DNA of 64,000 nt from Candidatus Limnocylindrales bacterium. Lineage in GTDB: Bacteria > Chloroflexota > Limnocylindria > Limnocylindrales > CSP1-4. The position numbers and the translations under genes were made by a program. The notes under the pieces are model-generated. The model was given only the letters and a program-made list of their open reading frames with translations, had not been told where the DNA came from and searched no databases. This document shows positions 5,116 through 28,367 of this stretch, piece by piece. The stretch covers positions 2,410-66,409 of the forward strand of contig DATFHO010000082.1 of NCBI GenBank assembly GCA_035248345.1, written 5' to 3'. Every line of letters starts with the position of its first letter. The first letter of the stretch is position 1.

Positions 5116-6356
5116 GCGACTTCCAGGTCGGCCTTCGGCGGGTCCAGGAGCTCGATCCATCGACGCCGCTGCCGGACAGCGACCCCGACCTCGTCGAGCG
5201 CATCCGCGCCGAGATCGTCCAGACGGGCCCGATGACCTTCGCCCGGTTCATGGAGCTCGCGCTCTACGACCCCGAGCGCGGCTACTACACCCGCGCCGAC
5301 ATCGACCAGGGACCGGGCCGCACCGGCGATTTCCTCACCGCGCCCGAAGGCCACCCGATCTTCGGCTGGTCGATCGCGCGATTCCTCGAGGCCGTGTGGG
5401 CCGCGCTGGACCGGCCGGCGCGTTTCGTGGTCCGCGAGCACGGCGCCGGCACCGGCGCGCTCGCCGCTGGGATCCTCGACGGCCTCCGGCGATCGGGATC
5501 GGCGCTGTTCGAGACGGTCGACTACCAGGCAGTCGATGCCGCGCCGACACGGCGCGCCGCGCTCGAGGCACGACTGCGCGACGCCGGCCTCGCCGACCAC
5601 CTCCGCGCCGCGGATGACGTGCCCGCGCCGGGCGCGTTCATTGCGAATGAGCTGCTGGACGCGCTGCCGGTTCACCGGGTCGAGGGCGGCGGCGACGGCC
5701 GCCTGCTCGAACGATTCGTCACGATCGGTTCAGGGGACGATGCGTTCGTCACCGTCCTGGCGGCGCCGTCCACGCCGGCCCTCGAAGCACGCCTCGCTGC
5801 AGAGGGCGTCGCGCTCGCGCCCGGGCAGCCCGCCGAGATCTGCCTCGCGATCGATGGCTGGATCCGCGACGCCATCGCGCCGCTCGAGCGCGGCGTTGCC
5901 CTGCTCATCGATTACGGGCACCCGGCCCACGAGCTCTACGCGGCACACCGGGGCAGCACGCTTCGCGCGTATCACCGCCATCGGGTCCATGCGGACCCGT
6001 TCGTCGCCATCGGCCGGCAGGACCTGACCGCCCACGTCGATCTCACCGCCGTCGAACGTGCGGCGACCGCTGCCGGCATGCGTCCCGCCGGCCGGACGAC
6101 CCAGGGCCCGTTCCTCGCCGACCTCGGCGCGGGCGAGCTGCTCGTCGGCATGCAGACCGCGTCGGACACGACGTTCGAGCGCTACGCCACTGCGCGCGCC
6201 GCGCTGATGCGGATGCTCGACCCGCGCGCGACGGGCGCCTTCGCCGTGCGCGCATTCGAGCGTGGAATGCCGAGAAATGCCCAGCTTCCGGGGTTCGCCG
6301 CGGGGCCATCCCGCGCACCTTCGGCGAGCGAGGCGACCGCGAGGCCGGATCGGTAG
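5112..6356 (+). CDS. SAM-dependent methyltransferase, MidA/NDUFAF7 (DUF185) family
   Basis: Motifs FMELALYDPERGYY, GDFLTAPE, REHGAGTGALA (SAM GxGxG) and ANELLDALPVH are characteristic of the MidA/NDUFAF7 family. Confidence 0.75.
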   Translation: MSDFQVGLRRVQELDPSTPLPDSDPDLVERIRAEIVQTGPMTFARFMELALYDPERGYYTRADIDQGPGRTGDFLTAPEGHPIFGWSIARFLEAVWAALDRPARFVVREHGAGTGALAAGILDGLRRSGSALFETVDYQAVDAAPTRRAALEARLRDAGLADHLRAADDVPAPGAFIANELLDALPVHRVEGGGDGRLLERFVTIGSGDDAFVTVLAAPSTPALEARLAAEGVALAPGQPAEICLAIDGWIRDAIAPLERGVALLIDYGHPAHELYAAHRGSTLRAYHRHRVHADPFVAIGRQDLTAHVDLTAVERAATAAGMRPAGRTTQGPFLADLGAGELLVGMQTASDTTFERYATARAALMRMLDPRATGAFAVRAFERGMPRNAQLPGFAAGPSRAPSASEATARPDR

Positions 6357-6398: not shown

Positions 6399-6842
6399 AT
6401 GCCACGAAGTCCGACAACGGATCGAGTGCCCGGCGTCCACCCCGGATGGCCGGCACGGAGCGAGGATGGCTTGACCGGGATCTGGTACATCATCGGGTTC
6501 GCCTTCGCCGCCGGATCGTTCACGTTCCTCACGTTCGGCGCGGCATGGCTGCTGTCCCACCGGAATCGCGGCGACGTCCACAAGGGCCTGCCGTACGAGT
6601 CCGGCATCGACACCTACGGTGACACCCACGGCCGCTTCGGGCTGTCGTTCTACATCTACGCCCTGCTGTTTGTCGCGTTCGACATCGAGGTCGTGTTCAT
6701 CTACCTGTGGGCCGTCGTGTTTCGAAACCTGCCGGAGCCGCAGGGGTTCACGACGATGCTCGTGTTCGTGGCGATCCTCCTCTTCGGGCTCGCGTACGCG
6801 TGGCGCAAGGGCGTGCTGAGCTGGCGAGGACCGGGCCGATGA
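6399..6842 (+). CDS. nuoA: NADH-quinone oxidoreductase subunit A
   Basis: Three TM segments with the YESGI and FDIEVVFIYLWA motifs. The start is uncertain (alternative in-frame TTG at 6471). Confidence 0.85.
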   Translation: MPRSPTTDRVPGVHPGWPARSEDGLTGIWYIIGFAFAAGSFTFLTFGAAWLLSHRNRGDVHKGLPYESGIDTYGDTHGRFGLSFYIYALLFVAFDIEVVFIYLWAVVFRNLPEPQGFTTMLVFVAILLFGLAYAWRKGVLSWRGPGR

Positions 6843-7582
6843 CCGACGAGACCCGCAACGACGCGACCAGCGCCCCGATGGGCTCCGACCAGACTGGCAA
6901 CGCGCCGGCTGCACTCGTCGTGCCCGGCGCCCGTGCCGTCTCGGAGCCGCTCGTGGTCCGCAACGACCTCTGGGCGCCCGCCGACCCGACCGCGTACGCC
7001 GCGAACGACCTCCAGGTCGACGTCACGCACCTGGCCGAATTCGGCGCGACGGATGCCGGGCGACATGACGATGCGCGCTGGTCCGGCCTGCTCGAGGTCA
7101 TCCCGACCAAGGCGGACTACGTCCTGGACCTGCTCCGCGCCAACAGCCTGTGGCCGCTGCTCAGCGGCCTCGCGTGCTGCGCGATCGAGATGATGTCCTT
7201 CGCGACATCGAAGAACGACATCGACCGGTGGGGCGCATTCCCGTTCCGCGCCTCCCCGCGCCAGGCCGACGTCCTCATCGTCGCCGGCACGCTCACGACG
7301 AAGATGGCCGGCCCGCTCCTGCGCCTGTGGGAGCAGATGCCGGAGCCGAAGTGGTGCGTCGCGATGGGCGACTGCACGTGCTCCGGCGGCCGCTACAAGC
7401 GCTCGTACTCCACGGTCGAAGGCATCGACCGGATCATGCCCGTCGACGTCTACGTGCCCGGCTGCCCGCCCCGCCCCGAGGGGCTGATCTTCGGGATGAT
7501 GAAGCTCCAGCAGCTGGTCAAGGACCGCCGCGGCCACTGGCCGGAGCGCGCGATCGGCCCCACGGTTCCGGCCGGGGTCTGA
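6839..7582 (+). CDS. nuoB: NADH-quinone oxidoreductase subunit B (with long N-terminal extension)
   Basis: N2-cluster cysteines are present (GLACCAIEMM, GDCTCSGG, VPGCPPRPE). ATGA overlap with nuoA. About 60 extra N-terminal residues if the 6839 start is used. Confidence 0.9.
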   Translation: MTDETRNDATSAPMGSDQTGNAPAALVVPGARAVSEPLVVRNDLWAPADPTAYAANDLQVDVTHLAEFGATDAGRHDDARWSGLLEVIPTKADYVLDLLRANSLWPLLSGLACCAIEMMSFATSKNDIDRWGAFPFRASPRQADVLIVAGTLTTKMAGPLLRLWEQMPEPKWCVAMGDCTCSGGRYKRSYSTVEGIDRIMPVDVYVPGCPPRPEGLIFGMMKLQQLVKDRRGHWPERAIGPTVPAGV

Positions 7583-7583: not shown

Positions 7584-8129
7584 ATGGATCGAGCCCTGGC
7601 GCGCCGCCTCGAGGCGCGATTCGGCCCTGTGCTCCATGGCCCGGCGCGCCAGCGCCACGACCAGACGGAGATCCGCATCGGTGCGGGCGACGTGGTCGCC
7701 GTGCTCCGAGCGCTCCACGATGAATCGGACCTGGCGTTCGTCATGCTGAGCGACCTCGCCGGCGTCGACACCGGCTCGGAGATGCAGGTCGTCTATCACC
7801 TCTGGAGCGCCACCACGAGCGACTGGCTGCGCGTGATCGCCGAAGGCCTCTCCCGCGACGACCCGCGGGTCCCGTCCGCGACCTACCTCTGGCCGGGCGC
7901 GGAGTGGATGGAGCGCGAGACCTACGACATGTTCGGGATCGTGTTCGAGGGCAACCGCGACCTCCGCCGCATCTACATGCCGGCGGACTACACGAGCTTC
8001 CCGTTGCGCAAGGACTTCTACCTGCCCGACGACAGCGCCCGCTCCCCCGGCGCCGGCGTGCGCCACGTCGAACGGACCCACAGCCCGACCGACGCCGCCC
8101 CCGGCGTCCTTCGCCAGACGCGAGCGTAG
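7584..8129 (+). CDS. nuoC: NADH-quinone oxidoreductase subunit C
   Basis: Motifs WPGAEWMERETYDMFGIVFEGN and DLRRI..P..Y fit the 30 kDa subunit family. Confidence 0.9.
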   Translation: MDRALARRLEARFGPVLHGPARQRHDQTEIRIGAGDVVAVLRALHDESDLAFVMLSDLAGVDTGSEMQVVYHLWSATTSDWLRVIAEGLSRDDPRVPSATYLWPGAEWMERETYDMFGIVFEGNRDLRRIYMPADYTSFPLRKDFYLPDDSARSPGAGVRHVERTHSPTDAAPGVLRQTRA

Positions 8130-8138: not shown

Positions 8139-9383
8139 ATGACGATCAACACCGGGCAGCGCCCGACGCCGAAGGGCACGCATCGATCGGCCGACGACCC
8201 GAACGTCCTGCTCCAGGACGACTTCGCGGAGTACGAGCCGATCCCGCCGTACCCCCCGCGCACCGAGCGGGAGGCCGAGTTCTACACGCTCGGCGACGGC
8301 GAGATGTTCCTCAACATGGGCCCCCAGCACCCCTCGACCCACGGCGTGCTCCGGGTCGTCCTCAAGCTCGACGGCGAGACGGTCGTCGACATCGACCCGG
8401 TCCTCGGCTACCTCCACCGCGGCGTCGAGAAGCTGATCGAGAACGCGGACTACCACCAGACGATCAGCCAGATGGACCCGCTCGAGTACATCTCGTCGCT
8501 GTTCATGGAGTGGGCGCCGGTCACGGCGTACGAGCGACTGCTCGACGTCCAGGTCCCCCGTCGCGCCGAGTACATCCGCGTGCTGTCGGGCGAGCTCAAC
8601 CGCATCGCCAGCCACGCGCTCTTCCTCGGCTGGTTCGCCCTCGACCTGGGCGGCCTCACGCCGATCCTGTGGTCGTTCATCGAGCGCGACGAGATCGTCG
8701 AGATGCTCGCCGCGCTCACCGGCCAGCGGATGCTCTTCAACTACTTCCGCATCGGCGGCGTGAACGGTGACCTCAACCACGAGTTCATGAGCCGCCTCGG
8801 CGACTGGATGAGCCGCGCGGTCTCCCAGATCGAGGCCGGCATGGGCCTGCTCAACGAGAACGAGATCTTCACCCGCCGTGCCAGCGGCCTCGGCGTCATC
8901 GATCGCGAGACGGCGCTGCGCTACTGCATGACCGGCCCGAACCTCCGTGCGACGGGCATGGCCTACGACGTCCGCCGCGCCCACCCGTACTCGATCTATC
9001 CCGAGCTCGAGTTCGATGTCCCGACGCGCACCGAGGGCGACTCGCTCTCGCGCTACCTCCTGCGCATGGAGGAGATCAAGCAGAGCGTCCGGATCATCGA
9101 CCAGTGCCTCGAGAAGATGCCCGACGGCCCGATCATGGCCAAGCTCCCCCGCCTGCTCCGGCCGCGCCCGGGTCGCGCGTGGTCGGCGGTCGAGTCGCCG
9201 CGCGGCCTGTTCGGGACCTACGCGATCAGTGACGGGACGGACCAGCCGTTCCGCCTGAAGATCCACGATCCGAGCTTCATCCACCTCCAGGCGGTCGGGG
9301 CCCTCCTGCCCGGCAACCTGCTCGCCGACACCATGGCGATCATGGCGAGCCTCGATCCGGTCATGGGCGGGGTGGATAAATGA
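8139..9383 (+). CDS. nuoD: NADH-quinone oxidoreductase subunit D
   Basis: 414 aa with NMGPQHPSTHGVLRVV, GYLHRGVEKL and a C-terminal ...IMASLDPVMGGVDK, as in the 49 kDa subunit family. Confidence 0.92.
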   Translation: MTINTGQRPTPKGTHRSADDPNVLLQDDFAEYEPIPPYPPRTEREAEFYTLGDGEMFLNMGPQHPSTHGVLRVVLKLDGETVVDIDPVLGYLHRGVEKLIENADYHQTISQMDPLEYISSLFMEWAPVTAYERLLDVQVPRRAEYIRVLSGELNRIASHALFLGWFALDLGGLTPILWSFIERDEIVEMLAALTGQRMLFNYFRIGGVNGDLNHEFMSRLGDWMSRAVSQIEAGMGLLNENEIFTRRASGLGVIDRETALRYCMTGPNLRATGMAYDVRRAHPYSIYPELEFDVPTRTEGDSLSRYLLRMEEIKQSVRIIDQCLEKMPDGPIMAKLPRLLRPRPGRAWSAVESPRGLFGTYAISDGTDQPFRLKIHDPSFIHLQAVGALLPGNLLADTMAIMASLDPVMGGVDK

Positions 9384-9519
9384 TCTCTGGGGCCGTCACT
9401 TGGACGTCCGATCCGGGCGTTGCCGTCTGCGCGCGCTCGCTCACGCACCCTGAGGTGCGCTCGCGATCGTGCTCGTCGGCGCCTTCGGCTCGGCTCGCCC
9501 AAGCGCCGGGGAGCTGCTC

Positions 9520-10872
9520 ATGACGGTCATGGCGCGCACCTGGGATCGGCTCACGCTCCCGGGCAAAGCCCTCGCGATCCTGCTGCCGCTGGGGGCGGTG
9601 CTGACGATCGGGCTGATCCTCGTGATCGCCCTGTTCGGCCAGAACATCCTCGACATCCTGATCTTCAACCTGCCGATCGTCCGGTTCGTGTTCGCGGCGA
9701 CGATCCTGTTGCTGCTCGCCCCGCCGATCGCCTTCGTGATCATCTACATGGAGATGAAGATCATCGCCCTCATGAACCTCCGGATCGGGCCGGATCGGGT
9801 GGGGCCGTGGGGGTCGCTGCTGTCGACCGTGCACGGGCTCAAGGTCCTCATGAAGGAGGACTTCACCCCGACCAAGGCAGACGCGGTCGTCTTCACGTGG
9901 GCGCCGGTCATCGTGTTCGGCGCGGCGGCCATGAGCGCGCTGGTGCTGCCGTTCGCGCCGGGGCTGTACGGCCAGGACTTCAACATCGGGCTGCTGTACT
10001 TCTTCGCGATCGGCGGCATGACCGTCGTCGGGCTGCTCATGGGCGGCTGGTCGAGCTTCAACAAGTACTCGCTGCTCGGCGGCATCCGCTCGGCGGCCCA
10101 GATCGTGAGCTACGAGATCCCGCTGACGCTGTCCGTTGTCGGGCTCGTGATCCTGGCCGGGACGATGAGCCTCAACCAGATCGTGCAGCAGCAGGGCGCA
10201 AGCGGCTGGTTCACCGACTGGTACGCGTTCCGGCAGCCCCTCGGCCTGGTCATCTTCTTCATCGCCGCGACGGCGGAGGCGAATCGCACCCCGTTCGACC
10301 TGACCGAGGCGGACTCCGAGATCGTCGCCGGCTTCGCGACCGAGTACTCGGGCATGCGCTTCGGGTTCTTCTTCTTCGCCGAGTACATCGGCGTGTTCAT
10401 CATCTCGGCGCTCACCACCGTGCTCTTCCTCGGTGGCTGGAACGCGCCGTTCCCGGTGCCGCACATCAGCTGGATCATCGATCCGAGCTCGCTCGGGCTG
10501 TGGCTGCTGCTGGGGATCATGATCGTGCCGGTGATCGCGACGCTGCTCTTCGCCGCGCCGGTCTACCTGTTCCGGTCGAAGACCCGCTGGTGGGTCGCGC
10601 TGATCATCGGCTTCGTCGTCTTCAACCTGGTGGCGGGTGGCCTGTTCTTCCTCTGGGCGTACATCAACTTCGACTGGGTGGCGGGCCTGATCTGGTTCCT
10701 CGGCAAGGCGTTCGGGCTCGTGTTCCTGTTCGTGTGGATGCGCGGCACGCTGCCCCGCGTCCGCATCGACCAGCTCATGGGCTTCGCCTGGAAGTGGCTG
10801 CTCCCGGCGGCGCTGCTGAACCTGTTCATCACCGCGGCGGCCATCCTCGTCATCGATCGGATCCGACCGTGA
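9520..10872 (+). CDS. nuoH: NADH-quinone oxidoreductase subunit H
   Basis: Polytopic membrane protein with RIGPDRVGPWG, EANRTPFDLTEADSEIVAGF.TEYSGMRF and RGTLPRVRIDQLM. ATG 9520 is chosen within track ORF 9469..10872. Confidence 0.9.
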   Translation: MTVMARTWDRLTLPGKALAILLPLGAVLTIGLILVIALFGQNILDILIFNLPIVRFVFAATILLLLAPPIAFVIIYMEMKIIALMNLRIGPDRVGPWGSLLSTVHGLKVLMKEDFTPTKADAVVFTWAPVIVFGAAAMSALVLPFAPGLYGQDFNIGLLYFFAIGGMTVVGLLMGGWSSFNKYSLLGGIRSAAQIVSYEIPLTLSVVGLVILAGTMSLNQIVQQQGASGWFTDWYAFRQPLGLVIFFIAATAEANRTPFDLTEADSEIVAGFATEYSGMRFGFFFFAEYIGVFIISALTTVLFLGGWNAPFPVPHISWIIDPSSLGLWLLLGIMIVPVIATLLFAAPVYLFRSKTRWWVALIIGFVVFNLVAGGLFFLWAYINFDWVAGLIWFLGKAFGLVFLFVWMRGTLPRVRIDQLMGFAWKWLLPAALLNLFITAAAILVIDRIRP

Positions 10873-11558
10873 GCATGCTGCCCAGCCTCGTCCCCGGCCT
10901 CGGCATCGTGAAGGGCATGGCGCTCACGCTGCGCCGGTTCTTCCAGCCGAAGGCGACCGTGCTCTATCCCGAGATGCCGGCGGACGTCGCGACGCGCTTC
11001 CGCGGCCGCCTCCAGCTGCTGTACGACGAGTACGGCAGCCTCAAGTGCGAGACCTGCTTCCAGTGCGCCCAGGCCTGCCCGATCGAGTGCATCGACATGG
11101 GCGGCATGGACACGAAAGGCCGGTTCCACGTGCACTGGGGCCCGCCGGAGACGTACGGCGAGCGACGCGAGGAATCGGCGATCCGCCGCTCCGGCCGGAC
11201 CGTGCCGGATCCCGCCTACGAGCACTACCGGCCGTTCGACACGACGACGATCGACGAGATCCTCGACAAGTACGACCACGACCCGAAGCTGATGCTGCCG
11301 ATCCTCGAGGACACGCAGGCGGCGTTCGGCTTCCTGCCGGTCGCAGCGATCAAGCGCATCTCGGAGCGGACCGGCGCCTGGTACGCGATCATCTACGGCA
11401 CCGCGACGTACTACTCGCACCTGCGGTTCGAGCCGCCGATGCCGGCCGAGGCGAAGGGCACGTCGGCGCCCGTCCTCGCGCGTCGCCCGAACGAATCGTC
11501 GTACGTGGACGCGCTCGGGGCGGCGCTCGGCGGCAAGCAGGCGGGGGGTGTGCATTGA
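10869..11558 (+). CDS. nuoI: NuoI-like subunit with a single Cys motif, fused to a cysteine-free NuoE-like N-terminal domain
   Basis: The N-terminus is NuoI-like (ATVLYPE..RFRG, CETCFQCAQACPIEC). The second CxxCxxCxxxCP motif is absent. The C-terminal ~110 aa (IDEILDKYDHDPKLMLPILEDTQAAFGFLP..AIKRISERTG..YGTATYYSHLRFEP) resemble the helical N-terminal part of NuoE and contain no Cys. GTGA overlap with nuoH. Confidence 0.7.
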   Translation: MSMLPSLVPGLGIVKGMALTLRRFFQPKATVLYPEMPADVATRFRGRLQLLYDEYGSLKCETCFQCAQACPIECIDMGGMDTKGRFHVHWGPPETYGERREESAIRRSGRTVPDPAYEHYRPFDTTTIDEILDKYDHDPKLMLPILEDTQAAFGFLPVAAIKRISERTGAWYAIIYGTATYYSHLRFEPPMPAEAKGTSAPVLARRPNESSYVDALGAALGGKQAGGVH

Positions 11559-12919
11559 CCGCGATCCTCCCGACGCCGAAGGAATGGCCGTCCGTGCTGC
11601 TGGCGCGCGCCGGCGCCGGCGACCCCACGGACCTCGACGCAGCGCAGAAGGCCGGTGCGTTCGACGGGCTTCGCCGTGCAGTTCGCGAGCTGGGGCCAGA
11701 CGGCACGATCGAGGAGATCCGGGCGAGCGGCCTGAAGGGCCGCGGCGGCGCGGGCCATCTCACGGCAGACAAGTGGCGCGCCGCGGCCGACACGGAGGCG
11801 CGCGACAGGTACGTCGTCGCGAACGGCTACGGGGCCGATCCTGCCGCGAGCACGGATCGCACGCTCCTCGAGACGGATCCGTATGCGGTCATCGAAGGCC
11901 TGACCATTGCCGCCTTCGCGGTCGGGGCGGAGACGGGCTACATCTCCGTCCGCGCCACCGCGACCGAGGCGATCAGCCGGATGACCGCCGCGCTCGACCT
12001 GGCGTACCAGCACAACCTCGTCGGCGAGGACGTGCTCGGCACCGGGCGGCGCATCGACATCGAGATCCGGTCTGTGCAGGGCGCGTACATGCTCGGCGAG
12101 GAGACGGTCCTCCTGAAGGCCCTCGACGGCAAGCGCGGCCAGCCGGAGCAGCGCCCGCCCCACCCGGCGACGCGCGGCTTCCGCAACGCGCCGACCGTCG
12201 TCCAGAACGTGCAGACCCTCGCTTCCGTGCCCTGGATCCTGCGCAACAAGGCACGCGCCTTCAAGGCGATCGGGCTCGGTGACGCGCCCGGCACGATCCT
12301 CGTCGACGTCCGCGGGCACGAGAAGGCGGGCATCGCGGAGGTGCCTCTCGGCACGCCACTCGGCCGCATCCTGGAGCTGGGCGGCAAGGCCGGCGCCGGT
12401 CGCAAGCTCAAGGCCATCGTCGTCGGCGGCCCGACGGGCGGGATCCTGCCCCCGAGCGCCATCGACACCCCGTACACGTTCGAGGACCTGCGCGGCGTCG
12501 GCGCCCATGTCGGCTCCGGCGCGGTGATCGCGGTCGACGACCGGGCGTGCATCGTGGACCTCGCCCGCCTGCTGACCCGCTTCTCCGCCGATGAGGCGTG
12601 CGGCAAGACCATCCCGTGCCGGATCGGGCTGCGACGCGTCGCGGAGATCGGCGAGCGGCTCACGACCGGCACCTCGCGGGCCGGTGACGTGACGCTCCTC
12701 GAGGACCTCTCCGCGGACATCGTCGCGTCCGCCCTGTGCGATCACGAGCGACTCGCAACACTGCCGATGATGAGCAGCCTCCGCCACTTCCGGCCCGAGC
12801 TCGATGCGCACCTCCTGCGCGGCGAGTGCCCGGCCGGCGTGTGCCGGCCGATCCACCTCGGGACCGCCACCACCGCGACCACCGCCACCACCGCGACCAC
12901 TGCTGGAGCGACCGCATGA
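11555..12919 (+). CDS. nuoF: NuoF-like flavoprotein subunit (divergent)
   Basis: Motifs GLKGRGGAGHLTADKW (FMN loop-like), GAYMLGEETVLLKALDG, NVQTLASVP and DEACGKTIPCRIG (N3 region with its middle Cys missing). TTG start overlaps the upstream stop (TTGA). The C-terminal tail is a (TATTAT)x2 repeat. Confidence 0.7.
   Translation: MTAILPTPKEWPSVLLARAGAGDPTDLDAAQKAGAFDGLRRAVRELGPDGTIEEIRASGLKGRGGAGHLTADKWRAAADTEARDRYVVANGYGADPAASTDRTLLETDPYAVIEGLTIAAFAVGAETGYISVRATATEAISRMTAALDLAYQHNLVGEDVLGTGRRIDIEIRSVQGAYMLGEETVLLKALDGKRGQPEQRPPHPATRGFRNAPTVVQNVQTLASVPWILRNKARAFKAIGLGDAPGTILVDVRGHEKAGIAEVPLGTPLGRILELGGKAGAGRKLKAIVVGGPTGGILPPSAIDTPYTFEDLRGVGAHVGSGAVIAVDDRACIVDLARLLTRFSADEACGKTIPCRIGLRRVAEIGERLTTGTSRAGDVTLLEDLSADIVASALCDHERLATLPMMSSLRHFRPELDAHLLRGECPAGVCRPIHLGTATTATTATTATTAGATA
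12863..12898 (+). repeat. Perfect 18-bp tandem duplication (ACCGCCACCACCGCGACC x2) encoding the Thr/Ala tail of the NuoF-like protein
   Basis: Read directly from the sequence: 12863-12880 is identical to 12881-12898. Confidence 0.9.
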
Positions 12920-15645
12920 CCGACCTGATCGAGCGGCCGCCCAGCGAGGTCACGCGCCGCGACGGCGCGCACGACGGCGATGCGCCCGACGAGCCGAAGC
13001 TCGGCGGCGACCGCTACACGCGCTACGACGGCAAGCCCGAGAGCCGCCCGGACAAGCCCATCGTCCGCGACACGGACACGCCGCTCGAGGACACGCGTGC
13101 CGAACAGCTCATTACGACGCAGAGCCCGCAGCGGCCCCTGAACACGCCGCGCATCCGGATCGAGGTCGACGGGCGCACCGTCGAGGGCCTCGAGGGCCAG
13201 ACGATCCTCGAGGTCTGCCGCGACAACGGCATCGAGATCCCGACCCTGTGCTACGAGCCGAAGCTCCCGGGCTTCGGTGCGTGCCGCATGTGCGTCGTCG
13301 AGGTCGAGGGCGAGGAGCATCCGCCGATCTCGTGCTCGCGCACGTGCGAGGACGGGATGAAGGTCCAGACCCAGACGGAGGAGATCCGCCGGGTCCGGCG
13401 CACGAACCTCGAGCTGATCTTCAGCGACCACAACGCGTATTGCCTGCCGCCCTGCCAGAACAAGTGCCCGAGCCACATCGACATCCCGGGCTTCCTGAAG
13501 CAGAACGCGGAGGGAAACTTCCGCGAGTCGACGCGGATCTTCAAGCGGACGATCCCGTTCCCCTCGGTGCTCGGTCGCGTGTGCCCCGCCCCATGCGAGG
13601 AGCACTGCCGCCGCGACGAGGTCGACGAGGCGATCGCGATCCGCGACTCCCACCGGTACGCCGGCGACATGGTCATCAAGTCGATGCTCGACGAGGACCT
13701 GGACCCGCCGGTCCCGTTCGAGCAGCAGCCGAAGACCGGCCGCCGCGCGGCGGTGATCGGCTCCGGCCCCGCCGGCATGGCGGCGGCGTACTACCTGCTG
13801 CTGTCGGGCCACGACGTCACAGTCTTCGAGCGCGACCCGGCGCCGGGCGGCATGCTCCGGTACGGCATCCCGCAGTACCGCCTGCCGAAGGTCGAGGTCC
13901 TCGAGGCCGAGTACGAGTCGGTCACGCGCCTCGGCGGCAAGATCGTGTGCAACCAGGGCCTCGGGCGCGACTTCACGCTCGACGACCTGCAATACCAGGG
14001 CTTCGACGCGGTCGTCGTGGCGATCGGCTGCTACGACACGAACAAGCTCGGCATCCCGGGCGAGGACGCGCCCGAGGTCCTTGACGGCCTCGAGTACCTG
14101 CGCACCGCCACGCTTGGGCTCCCGTATCCGGAGCACAAGGGCAAGCGCGTCGTCGTCATCGGCGGCGGCTTCACCTCGATGGACTGCTCGCGGACCTCGG
14201 TCCGCCAGGGGGCCAGCGAGGTCACCCTCGTCTACCGCCGCGACATGAAGGACATGCCGGCCGCGAACGAGGTCCACGAAGCCATCGAGGAAGGTGTCAC
14301 GGCGATCTTCCAGGCCGGCCCGACCCGCGTGGTCGTCGACAAGGACAACAAGGTCACCGGCGTCGAGTTCATCCGGATGGCGCTCGGCGCGCCCGATGCC
14401 TCCGGCCGCCGCCGCCCCGAGCCCGCGCCCGGCACCGAGTTCATCATCCCGTGCGATCGCGTCCTGCTCGCCATCGGCCAGGGGCCGGAGCTCGACTGGA
14501 TCGGCCCCGGCTCGACCGGCCCCGTCGCGACGAAGAACAAGCGCCTCGGCGCGGACGCGGTCACGTTCGAGACGGCTCGGCCCGGCGTCTTCGGCACGGG
14601 TGACGTGCGCATTGGCGCCGCGACGGTCGTCCAGGCGATCGCCGAGGGCCGGCGCGCCGCGTACGCGGTCGACGCCTTCCTGCGTGGCAACGACCTGTCA
14701 TCGATCCGCACTCGCCAGACCCTGGCGGAGCCGCAGCCCGAGTTCCTGTCGATCGTGCCGTTCACCGGCGAGGTCAAGGAGCCGCGCTACCGCCTGAAGG
14801 CCCTCGAGGCCGAGGAGCGCAACCACAACTACATCGAGTACGAGATCCCGTACTCGCGCGAGGAGATCGTGGCCGAGTCCACGCGCTGCCTCCAGTGCAC
14901 GTGCGAGGCGATCGGCTACTGCGACCTGCGCCGCCTCGGCATCGAGTACGGCACGACGCTGACCACGCTCGAGCCGGACCCGCACCAGGGCGCCGGTCTC
15001 CGATCCGTCAACGAGAACCGGTTCACGGGCATCAACCACGATTACATCCGGGACGACTCGCACGCGTTCATCCTTCGCGAGCCCTCGCGCTGCATCGACT
15101 GCGGCCGCTGCGCCAACGTGTGCGCCGAGGTCGTCGGTGCTGCGTGCTACGACTTCATGCGGATCGGCTTCGACACGCTCGTGACGACGCCGCTCGACAT
15201 GAGCCTCAACGACACGCCGTGCGTGTCCTGCGGCCGCTGCGCCGAGACGTGCCCGACCGGCGCGCTCATGCCGAAGCCGCGCGTCCTCCAGAAGTACGAG
15301 GTCGACGAGAGCCGCTGCATCCTGTGCGGCATCTGCGTGGACGCATGCCCGTACGACGCCCTCCGCGACGGCCAGGAGTTCGAGCTCTCGCACACCAGCC
15401 GCGAGGACCCGATGATCGACCTGATGGCGATGGCCCAGGTGGATCGCGAGACCGAGGTCACGTACATCCGCAAGGAGCGCGACTGGCTCCAGCGCGCGAT
15501 GGAGGCCGGCCGCTACGTCCCGTCCGACCGCCTGCTCACGGTGCTCCCTGCCAGCCTCTCGCGACCGGCCGGCCCGAGCGCGCACGAGCACGGCGGCGGT
15601 TCCCAGGGTGAGTCGCACGGCGGCTCCCACGCGCACCTGAAGTAG
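12916..15645 (+). CDS. Fusion protein: NuoG-type N-terminal [2Fe-2S] domain, GltD-type FAD/NAD(P)H oxidoreductase, then NuoG-like and ferredoxin-type [4Fe-4S] motifs
   Basis: N1b-like Cys pattern (C-x10-C-x2-C-x13-C in [30 protein letters not shown]). GltD-like blocks ([54 protein letters not shown]). Then [11 protein letters not shown]...[16 protein letters not shown] and [12 protein letters not shown]. The tail is His-rich. No molybdopterin-like C-terminal domain is recognisable. Confidence 0.7.
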
Positions 15646-15653: not shown

Positions 15654-16265
15654 ATGCGAGCCTGGCTCTACCTTCTCGCGGCGGCCGTCGCCGGCGCGAT
15701 CATCACCACGCCCGCGATCATCGTCCTGATCCTCATGGGCGGGTCGTTCAACGACGCCCTGCTGGCGGGCCTGGCGACGCTGATGCTCGCCTCGGGAATC
15801 GCGGTCGTGACGATGCGCGACATCATCCGGTGCGGCCTCGCGATGATCGTGTGCTTCCTGTCGCTCGCCGGCATCTACGTGCAGCTCGGCGCGCCGATGG
15901 TCGCGGCGGCGCAGGTGATCGTGTACATCGGCGCCATCAGCGTCCTGATCCTGTTCGCGATCATGCTCACCCAGGACAAGGCGGCCCCGGCGCGGCTCGT
16001 GTTCCAGACGCAGGCCACGCCGGCCGCGATCGCCTCGATCATCGTGGCGGTGCTCGTCGCGATCGCCGCGTACGGCACGAACTGGGGCGCCGTCACGACC
16101 CAGATCGAGGCGGCGACGAACACGATCGCCTACTTCATCTTCGGCAACACGTCCGACACGCCGCAGTCGCAGCAGTACGTCCTCGTGTTCGAGGCCGTGA
16201 GCGTGCTCCTCCTCGCCGCCGTCATCGGCGGCGTGTTCCTCGCGAAGAAGGAGCGCACCGACTGA
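15654..16265 (+). CDS. nuoJ: NADH-quinone oxidoreductase subunit J
   Basis: 203-aa polytopic protein in the nuoJ position, with [22 protein letters not shown]. Confidence 0.85.
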
Positions 16266-16582
16266 TGGGCGTCTCCGAGCAGCTCAACACGTACCTGACC
16301 CTGTCCGGGCTGCTGTTCGCGATCGGCTCGTTCGGGTTCCTGGCCCGCCGGAACGCGATCTCGATGCTCATGTCCATCGAGCTGATGCTGAACGCCGTGA
16401 ACCTCGCCATCGTCGCGTTCGGCGCGTTCATCCCGTCGCTGCAGGGGGACGGCGCGGTGATCGCGCTGATGGTCATCGCCGTTGCCGCGGCCGAGGCCAC
16501 GGTCGGCCTTGCGATCGTCATCGCGATCTTCCGCAACCGCAAGACGCCCCTCGTCGACGAGTACGACGCGATGCGCAGATGA
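16265..16582 (+). CDS. nuoK: NADH-quinone oxidoreductase subunit K
   Basis: 105 aa with three TM segments and the [15 protein letters not shown] and [12 protein letters not shown] motifs. Confidence 0.9.
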
Positions 16583-16592: not shown

Positions 16593-18590
<1,998 letters not shown>

Positions 18591-18593: not shown

Positions 18594-20243
18594 ATGGAAG
18601 CCTGGATCCTGACGCTCGTCACGTTCCTGCCGCTCGTCGGCGCGATCGTGATCGGATTCTCCCCGGTCCGCTGGGCGCGCATCCTCGCGCTCGCGACGGC
18701 GCTGATCACGTGGGCGGTCTCCTTGGTGATGGCCGGCATGTTCAACAGCGGCACGCCCGGGTTCCAGCTGGTCGTCGAGACCTCGTGGATCCCCGCCTTC
18801 GGGATCGAGTACAAGCTCGGCGCCGACGGGCTGTCCGTCGCGCTCGTGGTCCTGACCACGACGCTGACGTGGATCAGCATCCTCGCGAGCTTCGCCCCCA
18901 TCCAGACCCGGATCAAGGAATACATGATCTCGTTCCTGATCCTCGAGGTCGGCATGACGGGTGTGTTCCTCGCCCTCGACACGTTCCTCTTCTACATCTT
19001 CTGGGAAGTCGTGCTCGTGCCGATGTACCTGATCATCGGCATCTGGGGCGGCAAGAACCGCATCTACGCGACGATCAAGTTTGTGCTCTACACGCTGGTC
19101 GGCTCGCTGCTCATGCTCGTGGCGATCCTGGCGACGGCGTTCGCGTACCAGGGCGCGCACCCAGACACCGGCTGGGTGGGCGCGTTCGACTTCGAGGCGC
19201 TCAAGGCCTACGCGGGCACCACCGGCTTCGCCGACGGCCTGCAGCTCCTCGGCTTCGCGGCCTTCTTCCTCGCCTTCGCGATCAAGGTGCCGATGTTCCC
19301 GTTCCACACGTGGCTCCCCGATGCGCACGTCGAGGCACCGACCGCCGGCTCGGTCATCCTGGCCGCGGTGATGCTCAAGCTCGGCGCGTACGGGCTCATC
19401 CGGTTCAACCTGACGTTCTATCCGGACGCGGCGCATACCTACGCGCCGCTGATCATCGTCCTGAGCCTGATCGCGATCATCTACGGCGCGATCGTGGCGA
19501 TGGTCCAGCCGGACCTGAAGAAGCTGATCGCGTACTCGTCCGTCAGCCACATGGGCTTCGTCACGCTCGGGATCTTCGTGTTCCAGGAGCAGGCGATGAA
19601 CGGCGCGATCCTCCAGATGATCAACCACGGCCTGATCACCGGCGGGCTGTTCCTGCTCGTCGGCGTGATCTACGAGCGCACCCACGATCGGACGATCGCG
19701 AAGATGGGCGGCCTCGCCGGCCTGACGCCGGTGTGGGCGGTGACGTTCGGGTTCTTCGTCTTCGCCTCGGCCGGCCTGCCGGCGCTGTCCGGGTTCGTGG
19801 GCGAGTTCCTGACGATGCTCGGAACGTTCGTGGCGAACCCTTGGGCCGCGGCCGTTGCCGCCATCGTGATGGTGCTCGGCGCCGTGTACCTGCTGTGGAT
19901 GTACCAGCGCGTCACCCTGGGTGAGCCGTCGGCGTTCCTGCTCGGCCTGAAGGACCACCTGAGCGACATGACCGCCACGGAGGTGCTCACGCTCGCCCCG
20001 CTCGGCGCCCTGGTCGTGATCTTCGGCCTGTTCCCGGGCGTGCTCCTCACGGTGATCGGACTGCCTGCGAAGGACGCGCTCGAGGCCGTCGCAGGTGGCG
20101 CTCCGATCGCCCTGGACCCGATCGTCCCCGCCCTGTTCTTCGGCGCCGTGGTCGCGATCGTCGTGATCCGGCTGTTCGCGCTGCGCCCCGGCCGTGCGTC
20201 GGGTGAGGACACGGCCGCCCAGCCCGCGGAGGGCGCAGCCTGA
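18594..20243 (+). CDS. nuoM: NADH-quinone oxidoreductase subunit M
   Basis: 549-aa antiporter-like subunit (FAIKVPMFPFHTWLPDAHVEAPTAGSVILA). Confidence 0.9.
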   Translation: MEAWILTLVTFLPLVGAIVIGFSPVRWARILALATALITWAVSLVMAGMFNSGTPGFQLVVETSWIPAFGIEYKLGADGLSVALVVLTTTLTWISILASFAPIQTRIKEYMISFLILEVGMTGVFLALDTFLFYIFWEVVLVPMYLIIGIWGGKNRIYATIKFVLYTLVGSLLMLVAILATAFAYQGAHPDTGWVGAFDFEALKAYAGTTGFADGLQLLGFAAFFLAFAIKVPMFPFHTWLPDAHVEAPTAGSVILAAVMLKLGAYGLIRFNLTFYPDAAHTYAPLIIVLSLIAIIYGAIVAMVQPDLKKLIAYSSVSHMGFVTLGIFVFQEQAMNGAILQMINHGLITGGLFLLVGVIYERTHDRTIAKMGGLAGLTPVWAVTFGFFVFASAGLPALSGFVGEFLTMLGTFVANPWAAAVAAIVMVLGAVYLLWMYQRVTLGEPSAFLLGLKDHLSDMTATEVLTLAPLGALVVIFGLFPGVLLTVIGLPAKDALEAVAGGAPIALDPIVPALFFGAVVAIVVIRLFALRPGRASGEDTAAQPAEGAA

Positions 20244-21742
20244 TGCCGCAGGACATCCTGGTGCTCGGGCCGTTCATCGCCGCGGTCGTCGTCGCGCTGG
20301 CGGTGCTGGTCGTCGACCTTGTGGTGCCCGGCCGGCGCAACCCGGTCATCCTCGTCTCGCTCGTCGGCCTCGCCATCGTGGCGGCCCTCACGATCACGAC
20401 CGGCAGCGCTGTTGCGGGTGGCGATGGGACCGCGCGCGTCACCGCGTTCGGGGGCGCCTACGTCGTCGACGGGCTCACGACGTTCCTGGACCTCATCTTC
20501 ATCGGCATCGTCGCGTTCACGATCGTGTTCGCGCCGGACTACCTCGAGGCGCGCGGCCTGCCCATGGCCGAGTTCTCGATGGTCCTCCTGTTCGCCATGA
20601 CCGGCGCGATGCTCATCGCGGCCTCGGCGGACCTGCTCGTGCTCTTCGTGGCGCTCGAGCTCATGGTGCTGCCGGGCTACATGCTCGCTGGCTACCACAA
20701 GACCGACGGCTACTCGACGGAAGGCGCGATCAAGTACTTCCTCCTCGGCTCGTTCAGCTCGGCGATCTTCCTGTTCGGCCTCGCGTTCACGTGGGGCGCC
20801 ACGGGCACGACGTCGATCGCCGGCGTGAGCGCGGCCCTGCAGGCGATCGCGACCGGCGGTGCCGCCGTCTCGCCCGCGCTCGTGCTCGGCCTCGGATTCC
20901 TGACCACGGGCGTGGCGTTCAAGATCGCCGCGGTCCCGTTCCACTACTGGACGCCGGATGCGTACCAGGGCTCACCGACGCCGGTGACGGGCTACCTGAG
21001 CGTCGGCCCGAAGGTCGGTGCCTTCGCGCTGATCCTGCGCCTGTTCGTGGACGCGCTCGGCCCGCTGCGCGCCGACTGGCTGCAGGTCGTGATCATCCTC
21101 GCCGTCCTCACGATGACCCTCGGCAACCTCGTCGCGCTGACGCAGAACAACGTGAAGCGCATGCTGGCCTACTCATCGATCGCGCACACCGGGTACATGC
21201 TCGTCGGGCTCGCGGCGTTCGCCGCCGGCCAGATCCAGGGGCTGGAAGGCCTGCTCTACTACGGCGCGGCGTACGCGGTGATGAACCTCGGCGCGTTCGC
21301 GGTCGTTGCCGCGATCCAGCGGCGCTCCGGCGTCACGTCCGCGCTCGACACGTTCGCCGGGCTCGCGCGTCGCGAGCCGTGGCTCGCGATCCTCATGACC
21401 CTCTTCCTGCTGTCGTTGACGGGCATCCCGCCCACGGCCGGGTTCTTCGGCAAGGCGTACGTCATCCTCGCCGCCGTGCAGGCCAGCGAGGCCGGCTCGA
21501 CCGCCCTGGGCGTGCTGGCCGTCGTGACCGTGCTGAATGCGGCCGCAGCGGCCTTCTACTACCTCCGGGTCGTCGTGTACATGTTCATGCGCGAGCCGCG
21601 TGCGGACGAGCCGGCGATGGGCCACGGCGCCCTGATGTGGGGCGGCCTCGCGGTCGCCAGCGTCCTCACCGTCGCGCTCGGCCTCATCCCGGGGCCGTTC
21701 CTCGACATCGTCGGCCAGGCCGCCCGCGCGATCGGGGGGTAG
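20243..21742 (+). CDS. nuoN: NADH-quinone oxidoreductase subunit N
   Basis: 499-aa antiporter-like subunit (FKIAAVPFHYWTPDAYQGSPTPVT). Its start overlaps the nuoM stop. Confidence 0.9.
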   Translation: MPQDILVLGPFIAAVVVALAVLVVDLVVPGRRNPVILVSLVGLAIVAALTITTGSAVAGGDGTARVTAFGGAYVVDGLTTFLDLIFIGIVAFTIVFAPDYLEARGLPMAEFSMVLLFAMTGAMLIAASADLLVLFVALELMVLPGYMLAGYHKTDGYSTEGAIKYFLLGSFSSAIFLFGLAFTWGATGTTSIAGVSAALQAIATGGAAVSPALVLGLGFLTTGVAFKIAAVPFHYWTPDAYQGSPTPVTGYLSVGPKVGAFALILRLFVDALGPLRADWLQVVIILAVLTMTLGNLVALTQNNVKRMLAYSSIAHTGYMLVGLAAFAAGQIQGLEGLLYYGAAYAVMNLGAFAVVAAIQRRSGVTSALDTFAGLARREPWLAILMTLFLLSLTGIPPTAGFFGKAYVILAAVQASEAGSTALGVLAVVTVLNAAAAAFYYLRVVVYMFMREPRADEPAMGHGALMWGGLAVASVLTVALGLIPGPFLDIVGQAARAIGG

Positions 21743-21847
21743 CGCCAAACGCCTCGGTTCCGCGATTACCCGCTGCAGCGCCGCCGTGCGAAAGCCGGTT
21801 GGGTGCGTCGACCAAGTGCACCGGACACCGCTGGTACCGTGCCCGAC

Positions 21848-22543
21848 ATGGACACGCGGGGTATCGGCCTGCGCTTTCGCCTGCTCCCCGCCCTGCTGAC
21901 CGCGACTGGCCTGGCGCTGCTCGCCGGCGGGCTCATGTCCTACACGACGGCAGTCGAGCCGGCACCTTCGGCGGTCGCGCTCGCCTCGTATGACCCGCTC
22001 CCGACGATCGCCGGCCCCGTCGTGCTGCCGGACGGCAGCGGCGCGGTCGAGGCGAGCTTCCCGCCGGACCGCGTCGCCACGCGGATCGTGATCCGCCGCC
22101 TCGGGATCGACCTGCCGATCATGCTCCAGACGGACAACTACGGGCTGTACCCGCTGTGCGACGTCGCGCTGTACCAGCCGCTGCTCGGGCAGCCGGGCCA
22201 GGGCCGCGCGACGTACATCTACGCCCACGCCCGTGCCGGCATGTTCCTGCCCCTCCTCACCCGGTCCGAGGCGGGCGACGATGGCGAGAGCATGATCGGC
22301 ATGACCGTCGAGATCTACACGAGCGACAACTGGCTGTTCCTGTACACGATCGCCGATGTCCGGCGGCACACGCTGAACCTCGACGATGCGGTGAACACGA
22401 CGACCGAACGGCTGTGGATGCAGACGTCCGAGGGCACGCACGGCCACGTGCCGAAGCTCCAGGTCGTCGCGAACTTCCTCTCGGCCGAGAAGGTCGATCC
22501 GAGCCGGGCACACCCGCCTGCCCATCCGAGGATCTGCACCTAG
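21848..22543 (+). CDS. Membrane-anchored sortase-fold-like protein; catalytic Cys apparently not conserved
   Basis: N-terminal TM segment. The block order resembles sortases (RIVIRRLGIDLPIM; TYIYAHARAGMFLPL; RLWMQTSEG in the position of the TLxTC motif). This is a low-confidence family call made by eye. Confidence 0.35.
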   Translation: MDTRGIGLRFRLLPALLTATGLALLAGGLMSYTTAVEPAPSAVALASYDPLPTIAGPVVLPDGSGAVEASFPPDRVATRIVIRRLGIDLPIMLQTDNYGLYPLCDVALYQPLLGQPGQGRATYIYAHARAGMFLPLLTRSEAGDDGESMIGMTVEIYTSDNWLFLYTIADVRRHTLNLDDAVNTTTERLWMQTSEGTHGHVPKLQVVANFLSAEKVDPSRAHPPAHPRICT

Positions 22544-27197: not shown

Positions 27198-27551
27198 TTG
27201 GCACCGTCCCCCGCGCACATCCGCTCGACCATCGCGTCCGTCGTCGACCAGCCCGACGAGCTGCGCGCGCTGCGCATCGTCCACAAGACGCTGGCCGACG
27301 TGAACCGGCTGCGGATCGTCCAGCGCCTGGCGCAGGGCGAGGCAACCGTATCCGAGCTGATCGAGCGGGTCGGGCTCAGCCAGCCGCTGGTGTCGTGGCA
27401 CCTGGGTCGACTCCGCTACGCGGGTCTTGTCTCGACGCGCCGGGTTGGTCGCGAGACGATCTCGAAGCTCATCCCGGAGGCGTTCCGCGCCTTCAACGAG
27501 TACGAGCGCGGCGTCCTCGGCCTCGACCACCGCGAGCAGGCGCCATCGTGA
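27198..27551 (+). CDS. ArsR/SmtB family transcriptional regulator
   Basis: Winged-HTH block LADVNRLRIVQRLAQGEATVSELIERVGLSQPLVSWHLGRLRYAGLV. Confidence 0.85.
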   Translation: MAPSPAHIRSTIASVVDQPDELRALRIVHKTLADVNRLRIVQRLAQGEATVSELIERVGLSQPLVSWHLGRLRYAGLVSTRRVGRETISKLIPEAFRAFNEYERGVLGLDHREQAPS

Positions 27552-28246: not shown

Positions 28247-28298
28247 CCGGCGCGCCCCAGCCCTCGACCAGGAGGGCCTGCCAACCACCCAACCCGAC

Positions 28299-28367
28299 CT
28301 TCGTATGACGTCGACGGTCATGGCCCCGCGGACCCTTCCGCCCGGCCCCGAAATCGGTCATACGAAG
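28299..28367 (+). promoter_or_regulatory. Long-range 11-bp inverted repeat in the ino1 leader (candidate structured 5-prime UTR)
   Basis: CTTCGTATGAC (28299-28309) pairs with GTCATACGAAG (28357-28367). A competing local hairpin is ATGAC-N7-GTCAT (28305-28321). CGGTCAT occurs twice. Confidence 0.35.

Follow-up and report, generated by a model that had tools for sequence, protein, structure and literature searches.

How do electrons enter respiratory complex I when its operon encodes something other than the canonical N-module? This question is raised by a 64,000-nt stretch of DNA from Candidatus Limnocylindrales bacterium (GCA_035248345.1, contig DATFHO010000082.1, positions 2,410-66,409, forward strand), referred to here as the window, which has a G+C content of about 70%. 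It carries a nuo operon that includes an open reading frame (ORF) of 909 aa at 12916-15645 on the + strand, labelled A·I'' and called the target below. Homology identifies the target as the large subunit ('A') of a flavo-iron-sulfur module of the Nfn/Stn type, within the Bfu family. Its C-terminus is one half of the complex I subunit NuoI. We suggest that two highly abundant groups of soil bacteria, Limnocylindria and Thermoleophilia, probably have a proton-pumping complex I able to accept electrons from NADPH. The Limnocylindria enzyme would most likely be a non-bifurcating, proton-pumping NADPH:menaquinone oxidoreductase, possibly also using NADH. We put the probability that electron transfer from NADPH to quinone is its main reaction at roughly 0.6.

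Complex I ranks among the most thoroughly studied energy-converting enzymes. To our knowledge, few of its input devices have been recognized: NuoEFG for NADH, FpoF for F420H2, and the ferredoxin-binding subunits of NDH-1. An NADPH-specific flavoprotein input held by a two-polypeptide NuoI would be a new solution, and a natural experiment in the rewiring of the peripheral arm. Most carriers seem to be uncultured bacteria of soil and groundwater, and a large share of soil bacteria may have the operon as their main point of respiratory electron entry. In automated annotation the target is labelled 'FAD-dependent oxidoreductase' or 'formate dehydrogenase major subunit', and surveys of NuoG and NuoI may therefore score such genomes as lacking both.

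A three-gene block within nuoI

The operon encodes together the membrane subunits NuoA/H/J/K/L/M/N and the quinone-module subunits NuoB/C/D, in the order nuoA-B-C-D-H-[I'E']-[F']-[A·I'']-J-K-L-M-N. NuoK, L, M and N were assigned from ORFs, together with tblastn and Pfam matches at the corresponding positions in related loci.

6399-6842 (+): nuoA (Pfam Oxidored_q4; start uncertain)
6839-7582 (+): nuoB (Pfam Oxidored_q6), with the N2 ligand motifs CCAIEM, GDC and GCPP
7584-8129 (+): nuoC (Pfam Complex1_30kDa)
8139-9383 (+): nuoD (Pfam Complex1_49kDa), with the quinone-site motifs GPQHPSTHG and GYLHRG
9469-10872 (+): nuoH (Pfam NADHdh; start uncertain)
10875-11558 (+): I'E', a chimera of the NuoI first half, with the CETCFQCAQACP motif, and the N-terminal helical domain of NuoE/BfuC
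11555-12919 (+): F', a NuoF/BfuB-like flavoprotein core (sequence searches)
12916-15645 (+): A·I'', an NfnA/StnC-like subunit fused to the NuoI second half (homology, Pfam)
15654-16265 (+): nuoJ (Pfam)
16265-16582 (+): nuoK (ORF; Oxidored_q2 at the same position in related loci)
16593-18590 (+): nuoL (ORF; same position in related loci)
18594-20243 (+): nuoM (ORF; same position in related loci)
20243-21742 (+): nuoN (ORF; same position in related loci)

Gene order, homologies and the complementarity of the NuoI halves were obtained directly. The half-genes lie at 10875-11192 and 15280-15465. Residues ~10-96 of I'E' match residues 6-90 of M. smegmatis NuoI, including the first CxxCxxCxxxCP motif. 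The tail of the target matches residues 87-130 of the same protein and the second half of TYKY, and the NCBIfam NuoI model matches target residues 789-835. When joined in silico, the two halves cover positions 1-117 of the 121 in TIGR01971 as a single stretch with 101.8 bits (51-52 bits for each alone), a score that stays under the cut-off of 113. Only the half-genes were found in the operon, with no single NuoI polypeptide carrying two CxxCxxCxxxCP motifs, and no further NuoI-, NuoE-, NuoF- or NuoG-like sequence was found within the 64-kb window. The simplest reading of these sequences is that a block of three genes (E-like, F-like and A) was inserted into the nuoI of an 11-gene nuo operon, making the in-frame fusions NuoI(N-half)-E' and A-NuoI(C-half).

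Conservation, likewise obtained directly, was computed for Limnocylindria on 64 target sequences and on 56 sequences each of I'E' and F'. Residues ~121-203 of I'E' match the N-terminal helical domain of NfnC, StnA and NuoE, with the 2Fe-2S Cys replaced. Exactly five Cys, all in the NuoI part, are present in 55 of the 56 I'E' proteins; the exception carries one more Cys, within its E-like part.

A preliminary description of the target, made from the DNA alone, had proposed that the operon encodes a complex I variant. The location of the ORF within a nuo operon and the identity of its C-terminus as half of NuoI agree with this. The third Cys motif, which that description had regarded as 'extra', proves to be the NuoI second half by its match to NuoI/TYKY. 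An additional ferredoxin repeat or a relic of a formate dehydrogenase (Fdh)-type 4Fe-4S motif was ruled out, because the match extends beyond the Cys residues and because the tail is complementary to the upstream NuoI-N half.

Because its C-terminus is half of NuoI, the target would be physically tied to complex I, and it is very likely an integral subunit of the complex. Alternatively, the product of the block could stand apart from complex I, as a soluble transhydrogenase of the Nfn/Stn kind or some other GltD-type oxidoreductase whose genes happen to lie inside a nuo operon; the solubility of its closest characterized relatives might suggest this. However, each end of the block is joined in frame to one of two complementary NuoI halves, no intact nuoI is present in the operon or window, the Fdh-like domain through which NfnA oligomerizes is missing, and the location of the block between nuoH and nuoJ does not vary across two phyla. 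We consider a soluble enzyme very improbable.

Relationship of the target to NfnA and StnC

The target ORF is intact from its ATG at 12916 to its stop at 15645. The ATG overlaps the stop codon of F' (ATGA), which indicates translational coupling of the two genes. The parts of the protein are as follows.

13150-13377 (+): 2Fe-2S domain, residues 79-154, Cys112/123/126/140, equivalent to N1b or cluster A1 (Fer2_4, E 4e-21)
13429-13659 (+): GltD/NfnL-type Fe-S region with two [4Fe-4S] clusters, H172, C176, C180, C184, C223, C227, C231 and H246
13747-14649 (+): flavin adenine dinucleotide (FAD) and NAD(P)H Rossmann domains, residues 278-578, with GSGPAG, GGGFTS and LVYRRD (Pyr_redox_2, E 3e-28)
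14887-14922 (+): CxxCxCx5C motif, C658/661/663/669, further [4Fe-4S] ligands, putatively of cluster A3
15070-15267 (+): ferredoxin-like 2x[4Fe-4S] domain, putatively NfnA clusters A2 and A4
15280-15465 (+): NuoI second half, residues ~789-850 (NuoI profile and sequence matches)
15466-15645 (+): C-terminal tail with a His-rich end, not conserved (family alignment)

Among solved structures, the top match is Caldicellulosiruptor NfnA (9bov_A, E 9e-162), in which residues 4-699 of 1178 align with target residues 80-811. Thermococcus NfnA (9n5u_A) and Sporomusa StnC (8oh5_C) also align continuously over target residues 80-811. The next structural relatives are stand-alone NfnL and GltD, and NuoG proteins match at E 1e-19 or weaker, in the 2Fe-2S region alone. 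A single-chain AlphaFold2 model of the target (40-sequence alignment) reaches confidence only over the 2Fe-2S and GltD parts, at residues ~78-600. Foldseek searches with it returned the same ranking as the sequence search (NfnL 5jca_L, template-modelling score 0.77). The target had been described as a NuoG with an inserted GltD unit. A modified NuoG can be ruled out, given a score of 92 bits against a cut-off of 470 for the NuoG equivalog and the alignment of NfnA/StnC over ~730 residues, and an NfnA/StnC-type subunit of a Bfu-family module takes its place.

The NfnA and StnC structures comprise an N-terminal 2Fe-2S domain, then an FAD/NADPH domain like that of NfnL/GltD, then a domain resembling Fdh/NuoG but without pterin. 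The published wire runs FAD-A7-A6-A3-A2-A1-B1-FMN (flavin mononucleotide), with a dead-end side branch A2-A4-A5, and the Fdh-like domain mediates oligomerization of NfnA and binds the N-terminal domain of the C subunit. The target lacks this last domain: it ends ~100 residues past the alignment, whereas its relatives have 950-1180 aa. Alignment with Tsi NfnA identifies the ferredoxin-like pair as A2 and A4, and both are present in the target. Where the Fdh-like domain would begin with the next cluster, A5, the target has NuoI-C instead, 22 residues past the last Cys of the pair. In StnC, the Lys ligand of the FAD-proximal [4Fe-4S] cluster (K170) was reported to be 'strictly conserved'. In the target alignment, H246 sits where this Lys ligates the cluster in StnC and NfnA, and it is invariant in Limnocylindria and Thermoleophilia proteins.

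The domain assignments agree in large part with the preliminary description. All of the motifs that it quoted are where it had placed them, and its N1b-type 2Fe-2S region at residues ~75-150 corresponds to the Fer2_4 match found in a scan with domain hidden Markov models. The full GltD-type FAD/NAD(P)H unit that it recognized is intact and has all GltD/NfnL features: two N-terminal [4Fe-4S] motifs (Fer4_20, the GltD/DPD Fe-S domain, at residues 176-255, E 3e-17), the FAD GxGxxG, and the NADPH GxGxxx with basic residues after strand beta2. LVYRRD is invariant in the 64 relatives, and YRR is common to the NfnA proteins that oxidize NADPH in experiments. A molybdopterin-like domain, reported as unrecognized, is also absent from the 25 Pfam families listed for the target. 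The N5 motif had been called unrecognizable as well. A full motif is indeed missing, but PF10588 (N5 region) does match, over profile positions 1-17 only, up to the invariant His172. This residue leads directly into the GltD Cys motif (H-x3-C-x3-C-x3-CP), as it does in NfnA and StnC. The His-rich tail is present as described and is not conserved among relatives. The invariant CxxCxCx5C motif (658-669) and the NuoF-like neighbour had both been overlooked.

Other profile matches are less specific. Of the NCBIfam models, PRK12814, 'putative NADPH-dependent glutamate synthase small subunit', scores best (553 bits, under its cut-off), and TIGR01318 and TIGR01316 score ~300 bits each, below theirs. 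Fer4 dicluster families match residues 762-817, and a match of Fer4_Nqo3 to residues 719-784 is weak (22.7 bits, cut-off 27). No GltB or NfnS partner gene was found in the operon or its flanks, and the partners of the target are Nuo subunits. The Fe-S and NuoI motifs extend to about residue 850, leaving ~59 residues. Both this His-rich tail and the first ~60-70 residues vary among relatives.

Residues 1-70 (12916-13125) form a charged, Pro-rich extension ahead of the 2Fe-2S domain that is predicted to be disordered. This extension is absent or far shorter in Thermoleophilia proteins.

Conservation and distribution

More than 100 full-length target homologues, with identities of 82-91%, were returned by a protein search. 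They come from many independent assemblies from JGI, ENA and NCBI, and those with names are from Chloroflexota or Candidatus Limnocylindrales. When one genome per species was scanned with the C-terminal region of the target, relatives were counted in at least 495 species-level genomes. The best 80 of these, nearly all Limnocylindrales or Chloroflexota metagenome-assembled genomes (MAGs), are all 93-99% identical in the query region, so the scan is blind to further phyla. Gene order was read in about 45 related loci with enough flank, and also in four loci of Thermoleophilia. All of the ~45 share the order nuoABCDH-I'E'-F'-A·I''-JKLMN, and within them identity is 79-90% for the target, 60-80% for F' and 64-80% for I'E'. 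The Cys/His ligands, the FAD GxGxxG and the GltD-type NADPH motif region are conserved in at least 98% of the 64 target sequences, and the ligands are invariant across both phyla. The domain E-values and the hundreds of full-length homologues place the observation far beyond chance.

The preliminary description had allowed that the fusion might be an assembly chimera, or that homologues might be encoded away from nuo genes. The close homologues always lie between nuoH and nuoJ. A chimera, a frameshift artefact or a pseudogene could be suspected in a high-GC, probably metagenomic sequence, and a few related long-read assemblies do have frameshifted copies. However, the fusion recurs in hundreds of independent assemblies, including the homologues and genomes counted above, the junctions at ~13250-13500 and ~14700-14900 align unbroken to relatives and to solved NfnA/StnC, and the sequence is under strong purifying selection. 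An artefact is refuted by these data for practical purposes.

Two ENA long-read loci (L085 and L086) have operon copies broken by frameshifts into many short ORFs, and in a 50%-identity representative library such copies look, misleadingly, like 'intermediates' at 57-65% identity. The representatives P0209 and P0167 (50-65% identity) were considered as intermediate lineages and rejected as frameshift-ridden long-read assemblies of the same operon. A fusion of F' and the target in a 1388-aa ORF of locus L005 (7640-7900), from a long-read MAG, was put down to a probable one-base indel (CPAGRLPADPP versus CPAGVCRP).

Outside the target's own cluster, representatives fall to at most 46% identity, and most are NfnA/StnC-type proteins of 1000-1260 aa. 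One 816-aa representative (P0142), 39-43% identical depending on the alignment, likewise terminates in NuoI-C. Its relatives make up more than 100 clusters of ~825 aa, and those with names are from Thermoleophilia or Actinobacteria MAGs. The same split-nuoI operon lies between nuoH and nuoJ in four Thermoleophilia (Actinomycetota) loci. Three of these include the upstream genes, each with a complete NuoE/BfuC and a BfuB of 620-638 aa, and their split-nuoI blocks are at:

L001: 7330-12451
L083: 7311-12475
L084: 4889-9976

In L001, the locus read in detail, NuoE/BfuC keeps all four 2Fe-2S Cys. The bifurcating BfuBC core (FMN, B1, C1 and the B3/B4 ferredoxin domain) is present in these relatives, and the Thermoleophilia form is a candidate for a membrane-bound bifurcating or confurcating complex I. 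In Limnocylindria the parts for bifurcation are gone (clusters C1/N1a, B3, B4 and B5), and B1 is left with three Cys. The 'bifurcating-like' input once suggested for the window operon would fit the Thermoleophilia relatives instead. The whole operon is 37-59% identical between the two groups, consistent with a single origin of the split-nuoI arrangement. Lineages with a full and with a stripped core offer a view of the interconversion of bifurcating Bfu and non-bifurcating NADH modules, which bears on the origin of the complex I N-module.

The F' subunit and a possible second donor

F' scores 351-364 bits against StnB, NfnB and HydB, compared with at most 274 bits for any complex I NuoF, and reaches 346 bits on nuoF_fam, for which the cut-off is 559. 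It lacks both the thioredoxin-like domain at the N-terminus and the C-terminal 2x[4Fe-4S] domain of BfuB. The GRGGxG loop, K-W-R, LGEET, CGK(T/S)IPCRIG and LCDHERL are invariant in the 56 sequences. Tyr178, the Arg of the RGxP loop and the Bfu-type 3Cys+His Zn site are also kept. Three of the four Cys at the N3/B1 site remain: Thr or Ser replaces the middle one in CxxCxxC, and the fourth is followed by a new D-H-E-R. The NADE(G)DPG motif has become an invariant NGYGADP, in which the Asp is now Tyr and the neighbouring Glu now Gly. NGYGADP, CGK(T/S)IPC and LCDHERL are derived invariant motifs of F'.

In NfnB, two residues sandwich the adenine of NADH, and in the Tsi protein the Glu of GEET confers NADH selectivity. 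The corresponding adenine-stacking positions of F' are F/Y/H and H/Y in most members and thus mostly aromatic. The window protein has His at both; we had read this as a loss of NADH binding, and withdrew that reading given the family-wide pattern. Asp-195 of Tsi NfnB is proposed to stabilize the flavin semiquinone, and the invariant Tyr92 of F' aligns with it approximately. Its pattern of substitution indicates that F' is constrained and remodelled under purifying selection, not decaying.

F' ends (12860-12915) in a low-complexity tail rich in Thr and Ala, GTATTATTATTATTAGATA. A short, imperfect repeat in the DNA encodes this tail, which is not conserved in relatives.

The retained features raise the possibility of a two-donor, transhydrogenase-type enzyme, with NADH oxidized at the F' flavin as the main donor and the GltD/FAD site as a secondary port. 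This port would either feed NADPH from an over-reduced pool, or export electrons to NADP+ to make NADPH. GRGGxG, GEET, Tyr178, the RGxP Arg, the mostly aromatic stackers, the three Cys with an invariant His and the Zn site are all compatible with such an enzyme. F' and E' are intact in hundreds of genomes, and the nucleotide sites of NfnABC and StnABC are wired together through A2-A1-B1. On the other hand, the NADE Asp is an invariant Tyr at the approximate position of the semiquinone-stabilizing Asp-195, the Glu beside it and the middle CxxCxxC Cys are replaced, the N1a/C1 cluster is gone, and F' is the least conserved protein of the module. An ungated link between NADH and NADPH would also be expected to dissipate the disequilibrium between the NADPH and NADH pools. 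We would give this arrangement about one chance in four. The preliminary description had placed electron entry at the GltD site rather than at the FMN site of NuoF. The GltD unit is intact as it held, but with a NuoF-like F' directly upstream, entry at the GltD site 'in addition to' the flavin of F' is a live alternative.

Proposed electron path

In the favoured reading, NADPH-driven reduction of quinone, the two NuoI halves would reassemble into a normal 2x[4Fe-4S] NuoI fold, which would bolt the module to the quinone module. Electrons would pass from NADPH to FAD, on to the two GltD-type [4Fe-4S] clusters (A7, A6), the CxxCxCx5C cluster (A3) and the ferredoxin-like pair (A2, then A4), and from A4 through the split-NuoI clusters to N2 in NuoB and to quinone. 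Proton pumping would fall, as usual, to the membrane subunits A, H, J, K, L, M and N. F' may be either a second (NADH) entry through the 2Fe-2S cluster, or mainly a scaffold or electron sink. E' and F' together would also tie NuoI-N to the A subunit a second time, given that the N-terminal domain of NfnC is a structural anchor in NfnABC. Physical assembly, the cluster-by-cluster path, the substrate and the direction of electron flow are what we infer from the genes.

The choice of a non-bifurcating NADPH:menaquinone enzyme follows from the loss of the parts for bifurcation together with the invariance of the NADPH/FAD unit and the Fe-S wire. By published criteria, Bfu homologues missing C1 and the N- and C-terminal cluster domains of BfuB are non-bifurcating. 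The exit through A2, A4 and the split NuoI is suggested by the presence of A2 and A4 and by NuoI-C at the site of A5. In canonical complex I the hand-over is from N5 to N6a. If these phyla use menaquinone, a low-potential quinone, as we assume, the driving force from an NADPH pool that is physiologically more reduced would exceed that from NADH. A related driving-force argument appears, in the passages drawn on here, for Nuo-Bfu in Schut et al. 2022 (PMC9304861).

The same machine could run backwards, with the proton-motive force pushing electrons from menaquinol to NADP+ for biosynthesis, as might happen in cells growing on trace gases or other donors of high potential. Complex I is known to be reversible, Nfn/Stn enzymes make NADPH physiologically, and the architecture would be the same as for NADPH oxidation. 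Nothing in the window points to lithotrophy, though, and direction is unreadable from sequence. Reverse operation is hence a variant of the favoured reading, not a separate one, and we regard it as unlikely.

Several points weigh against NADPH-driven quinone reduction. F' is under purifying selection with GEET, GRGGxG, K-W-R, Tyr178, three B1/N3 Cys and aromatic stackers, and from these features NADH may remain a donor, even the main one. The model of the target has a predicted local distance difference test score below 50 for residues 661-858 and is uninformative on the junction between the C-terminal Fe-S domains and NuoI. The route from A2 through A4 to NuoI is proposed by analogy with formate-dehydrogenase-type wiring, while the exit from canonical NuoG is at the N5 position. 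A respiratory enzyme that burns NADPH would be physiologically unusual, and the direction could be that of NADP+ reduction driven by the proton-motive force. The YRR motif is kept in most Thermoleophilia proteins and lost in some, so NADPH use is not universal to the architecture. A search for cultured carriers of the operon gave only MAG-derived names.

More tentatively, the split nuoI with its Nfn/Stn module might represent a new class of complex I, with a Y-junction exit through the dead-end branch of NfnABC and not through N5. In Limnocylindria it would be a dedicated NADPH-driven pump, and in Thermoleophilia a membrane-bound pump that bifurcates or confurcates among NADH, ferredoxin, NADPH and quinone. 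We hold this broader proposal to be possible, at rather less than even odds.

Comparison with known systems

The closest counterparts are NfnABC and StnABC of Caldicellulosiruptor, Sporomusa and Thermococcus (9bov, 8oh5, 9n5u), which have the same E-F-A gene order as the window. Their large subunit resembles the target in the 2Fe-2S domain, H-x3-C-x3-C-x3-CP, CPxPCxxxC, the FAD/NADPH unit with YRR, CxxCxCx5C and the ferredoxin-like pair, and F' resembles StnB, NfnB and HydB in its scores, which exceed those for any NuoF, and in the retained Bfu Zn site. The target differs in having NuoI-C in place of the Fdh/molybdopterin-like domain, and an invariant His in place of the Lys ligand of StnC. 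NfnABC and StnABC bifurcate, whereas the window module, which is without C1, B3, B4 and B5, is predicted not to do so by the published mechanism. They are also soluble, whereas the window module would be tethered to membrane complex I.

A Bfu-type module that feeds the membrane and quinone machinery of complex I was also predicted for Nuo-Bfu, a 14-subunit complex I in which BfuABC replaces NuoEFG, in Geobacter, Deferribacteres, Planctomycetes and Nitrospirae (Schut et al. 2022, PMC9304861). The Thermoleophilia relatives have a complete BfuBC core. In the passages of that account used here, BfuA is NuoG-like with clusters A1-A5, and neither an NfnL/GltD domain nor a split NuoI is mentioned; the A subunit of the window is Nfn-type, with an FAD/NADPH unit. 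As described there, the class is defined on a BfuB with a C-terminal Fe-S domain, which F' lacks, and a BfuABC-like module in a nuo cluster holds for the window in a broad sense. The phyla that those passages name differ from that of the window, the block here sits inside nuoI, and Limnocylindria have lost the bifurcating core.

The canonical N-module (T. thermophilus Nqo2/1/3, E. coli, M. smegmatis) shares homologous E, F and G N-terminal Fe-S folds with the window module, including equivalents of N1b and N4, and the downstream chain from NuoI to NuoB and quinone is the same. The window nevertheless does not encode a canonical N-module: E' has no N1a Cys, F' has altered motifs and a three-Cys N3 site, and the target fails as a NuoG (92 versus 470 bits), with its GltD insertion and without the molybdopterin-like domain. 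The genes are also not between nuoD and nuoH, and the probable exit from the A subunit is the ferredoxin-like pair, compared with the N5 position in canonical complex I.

Coupling of a GltD-type NAD(P)(H) flavoprotein to a membrane enzyme that resembles complex I has been described before. From genome analysis, a gltD-related flavoprotein is reported to replace NuoI in Mbx-like operons of Thermotoga and some proteobacteria, in a hydrogenase-related complex of the Mbx type (Degli Esposti 2015, PMC4758237). The window operon, of the true quinone type, retains NuoI in two pieces, and its GltD unit forms part of a multi-cluster subunit resembling NfnA. Our literature search, of incomplete coverage, found no published account of an Nfn/Stn-type module inside a split nuoI.

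Alternative inputs on an 11-subunit core are also provided by FpoF (F420H2) in methanogens and by NdhS/V/O (ferredoxin) in cyanobacterial NDH-1. These follow the same principle of a conserved 11-subunit core with an exchangeable input, with unrelated proteins and donors, and we know of no involvement of a split NuoI or a GltD-type flavoprotein in either.

Other genes in the window

Directly upstream of nuoA lies one further gene of possible relevance to the complex.

4998-6356 (+): NDUFAF7/MidA-family methyltransferase (PF02636, Methyltransf_28; E 1e-55; start uncertain)

A member of this family also stands ahead of nuoA in the related locus L085, but not in the Thermoleophilia loci. The NDUFAF7 family methylates the NuoD homologue during assembly of mitochondrial complex I, and the product may be a complex I assembly or modification factor.

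Directly after nuoN, a 246-aa ORF (21803-22543, +) has no Pfam match at E <= 1e-4. Further downstream, a cluster at 27395-33713 (+) resembles actinobacterial phosphatidylinositol or phosphatidylinositol-mannoside synthesis, which is unexpected in a Chloroflexota genome. It encodes a CDP-alcohol phosphatidyltransferase, a myo-inositol-1-phosphate synthase, two lipid-A-type acyltransferases, a PHP-domain protein and a GT4 glycosyltransferase. On the opposite strand, 33735-39110 (-) encodes a 1791-aa multi-pass membrane protein with PMT / PMT_4TMC (protein-O-mannosyltransferase) domains and a large central non-membrane region.

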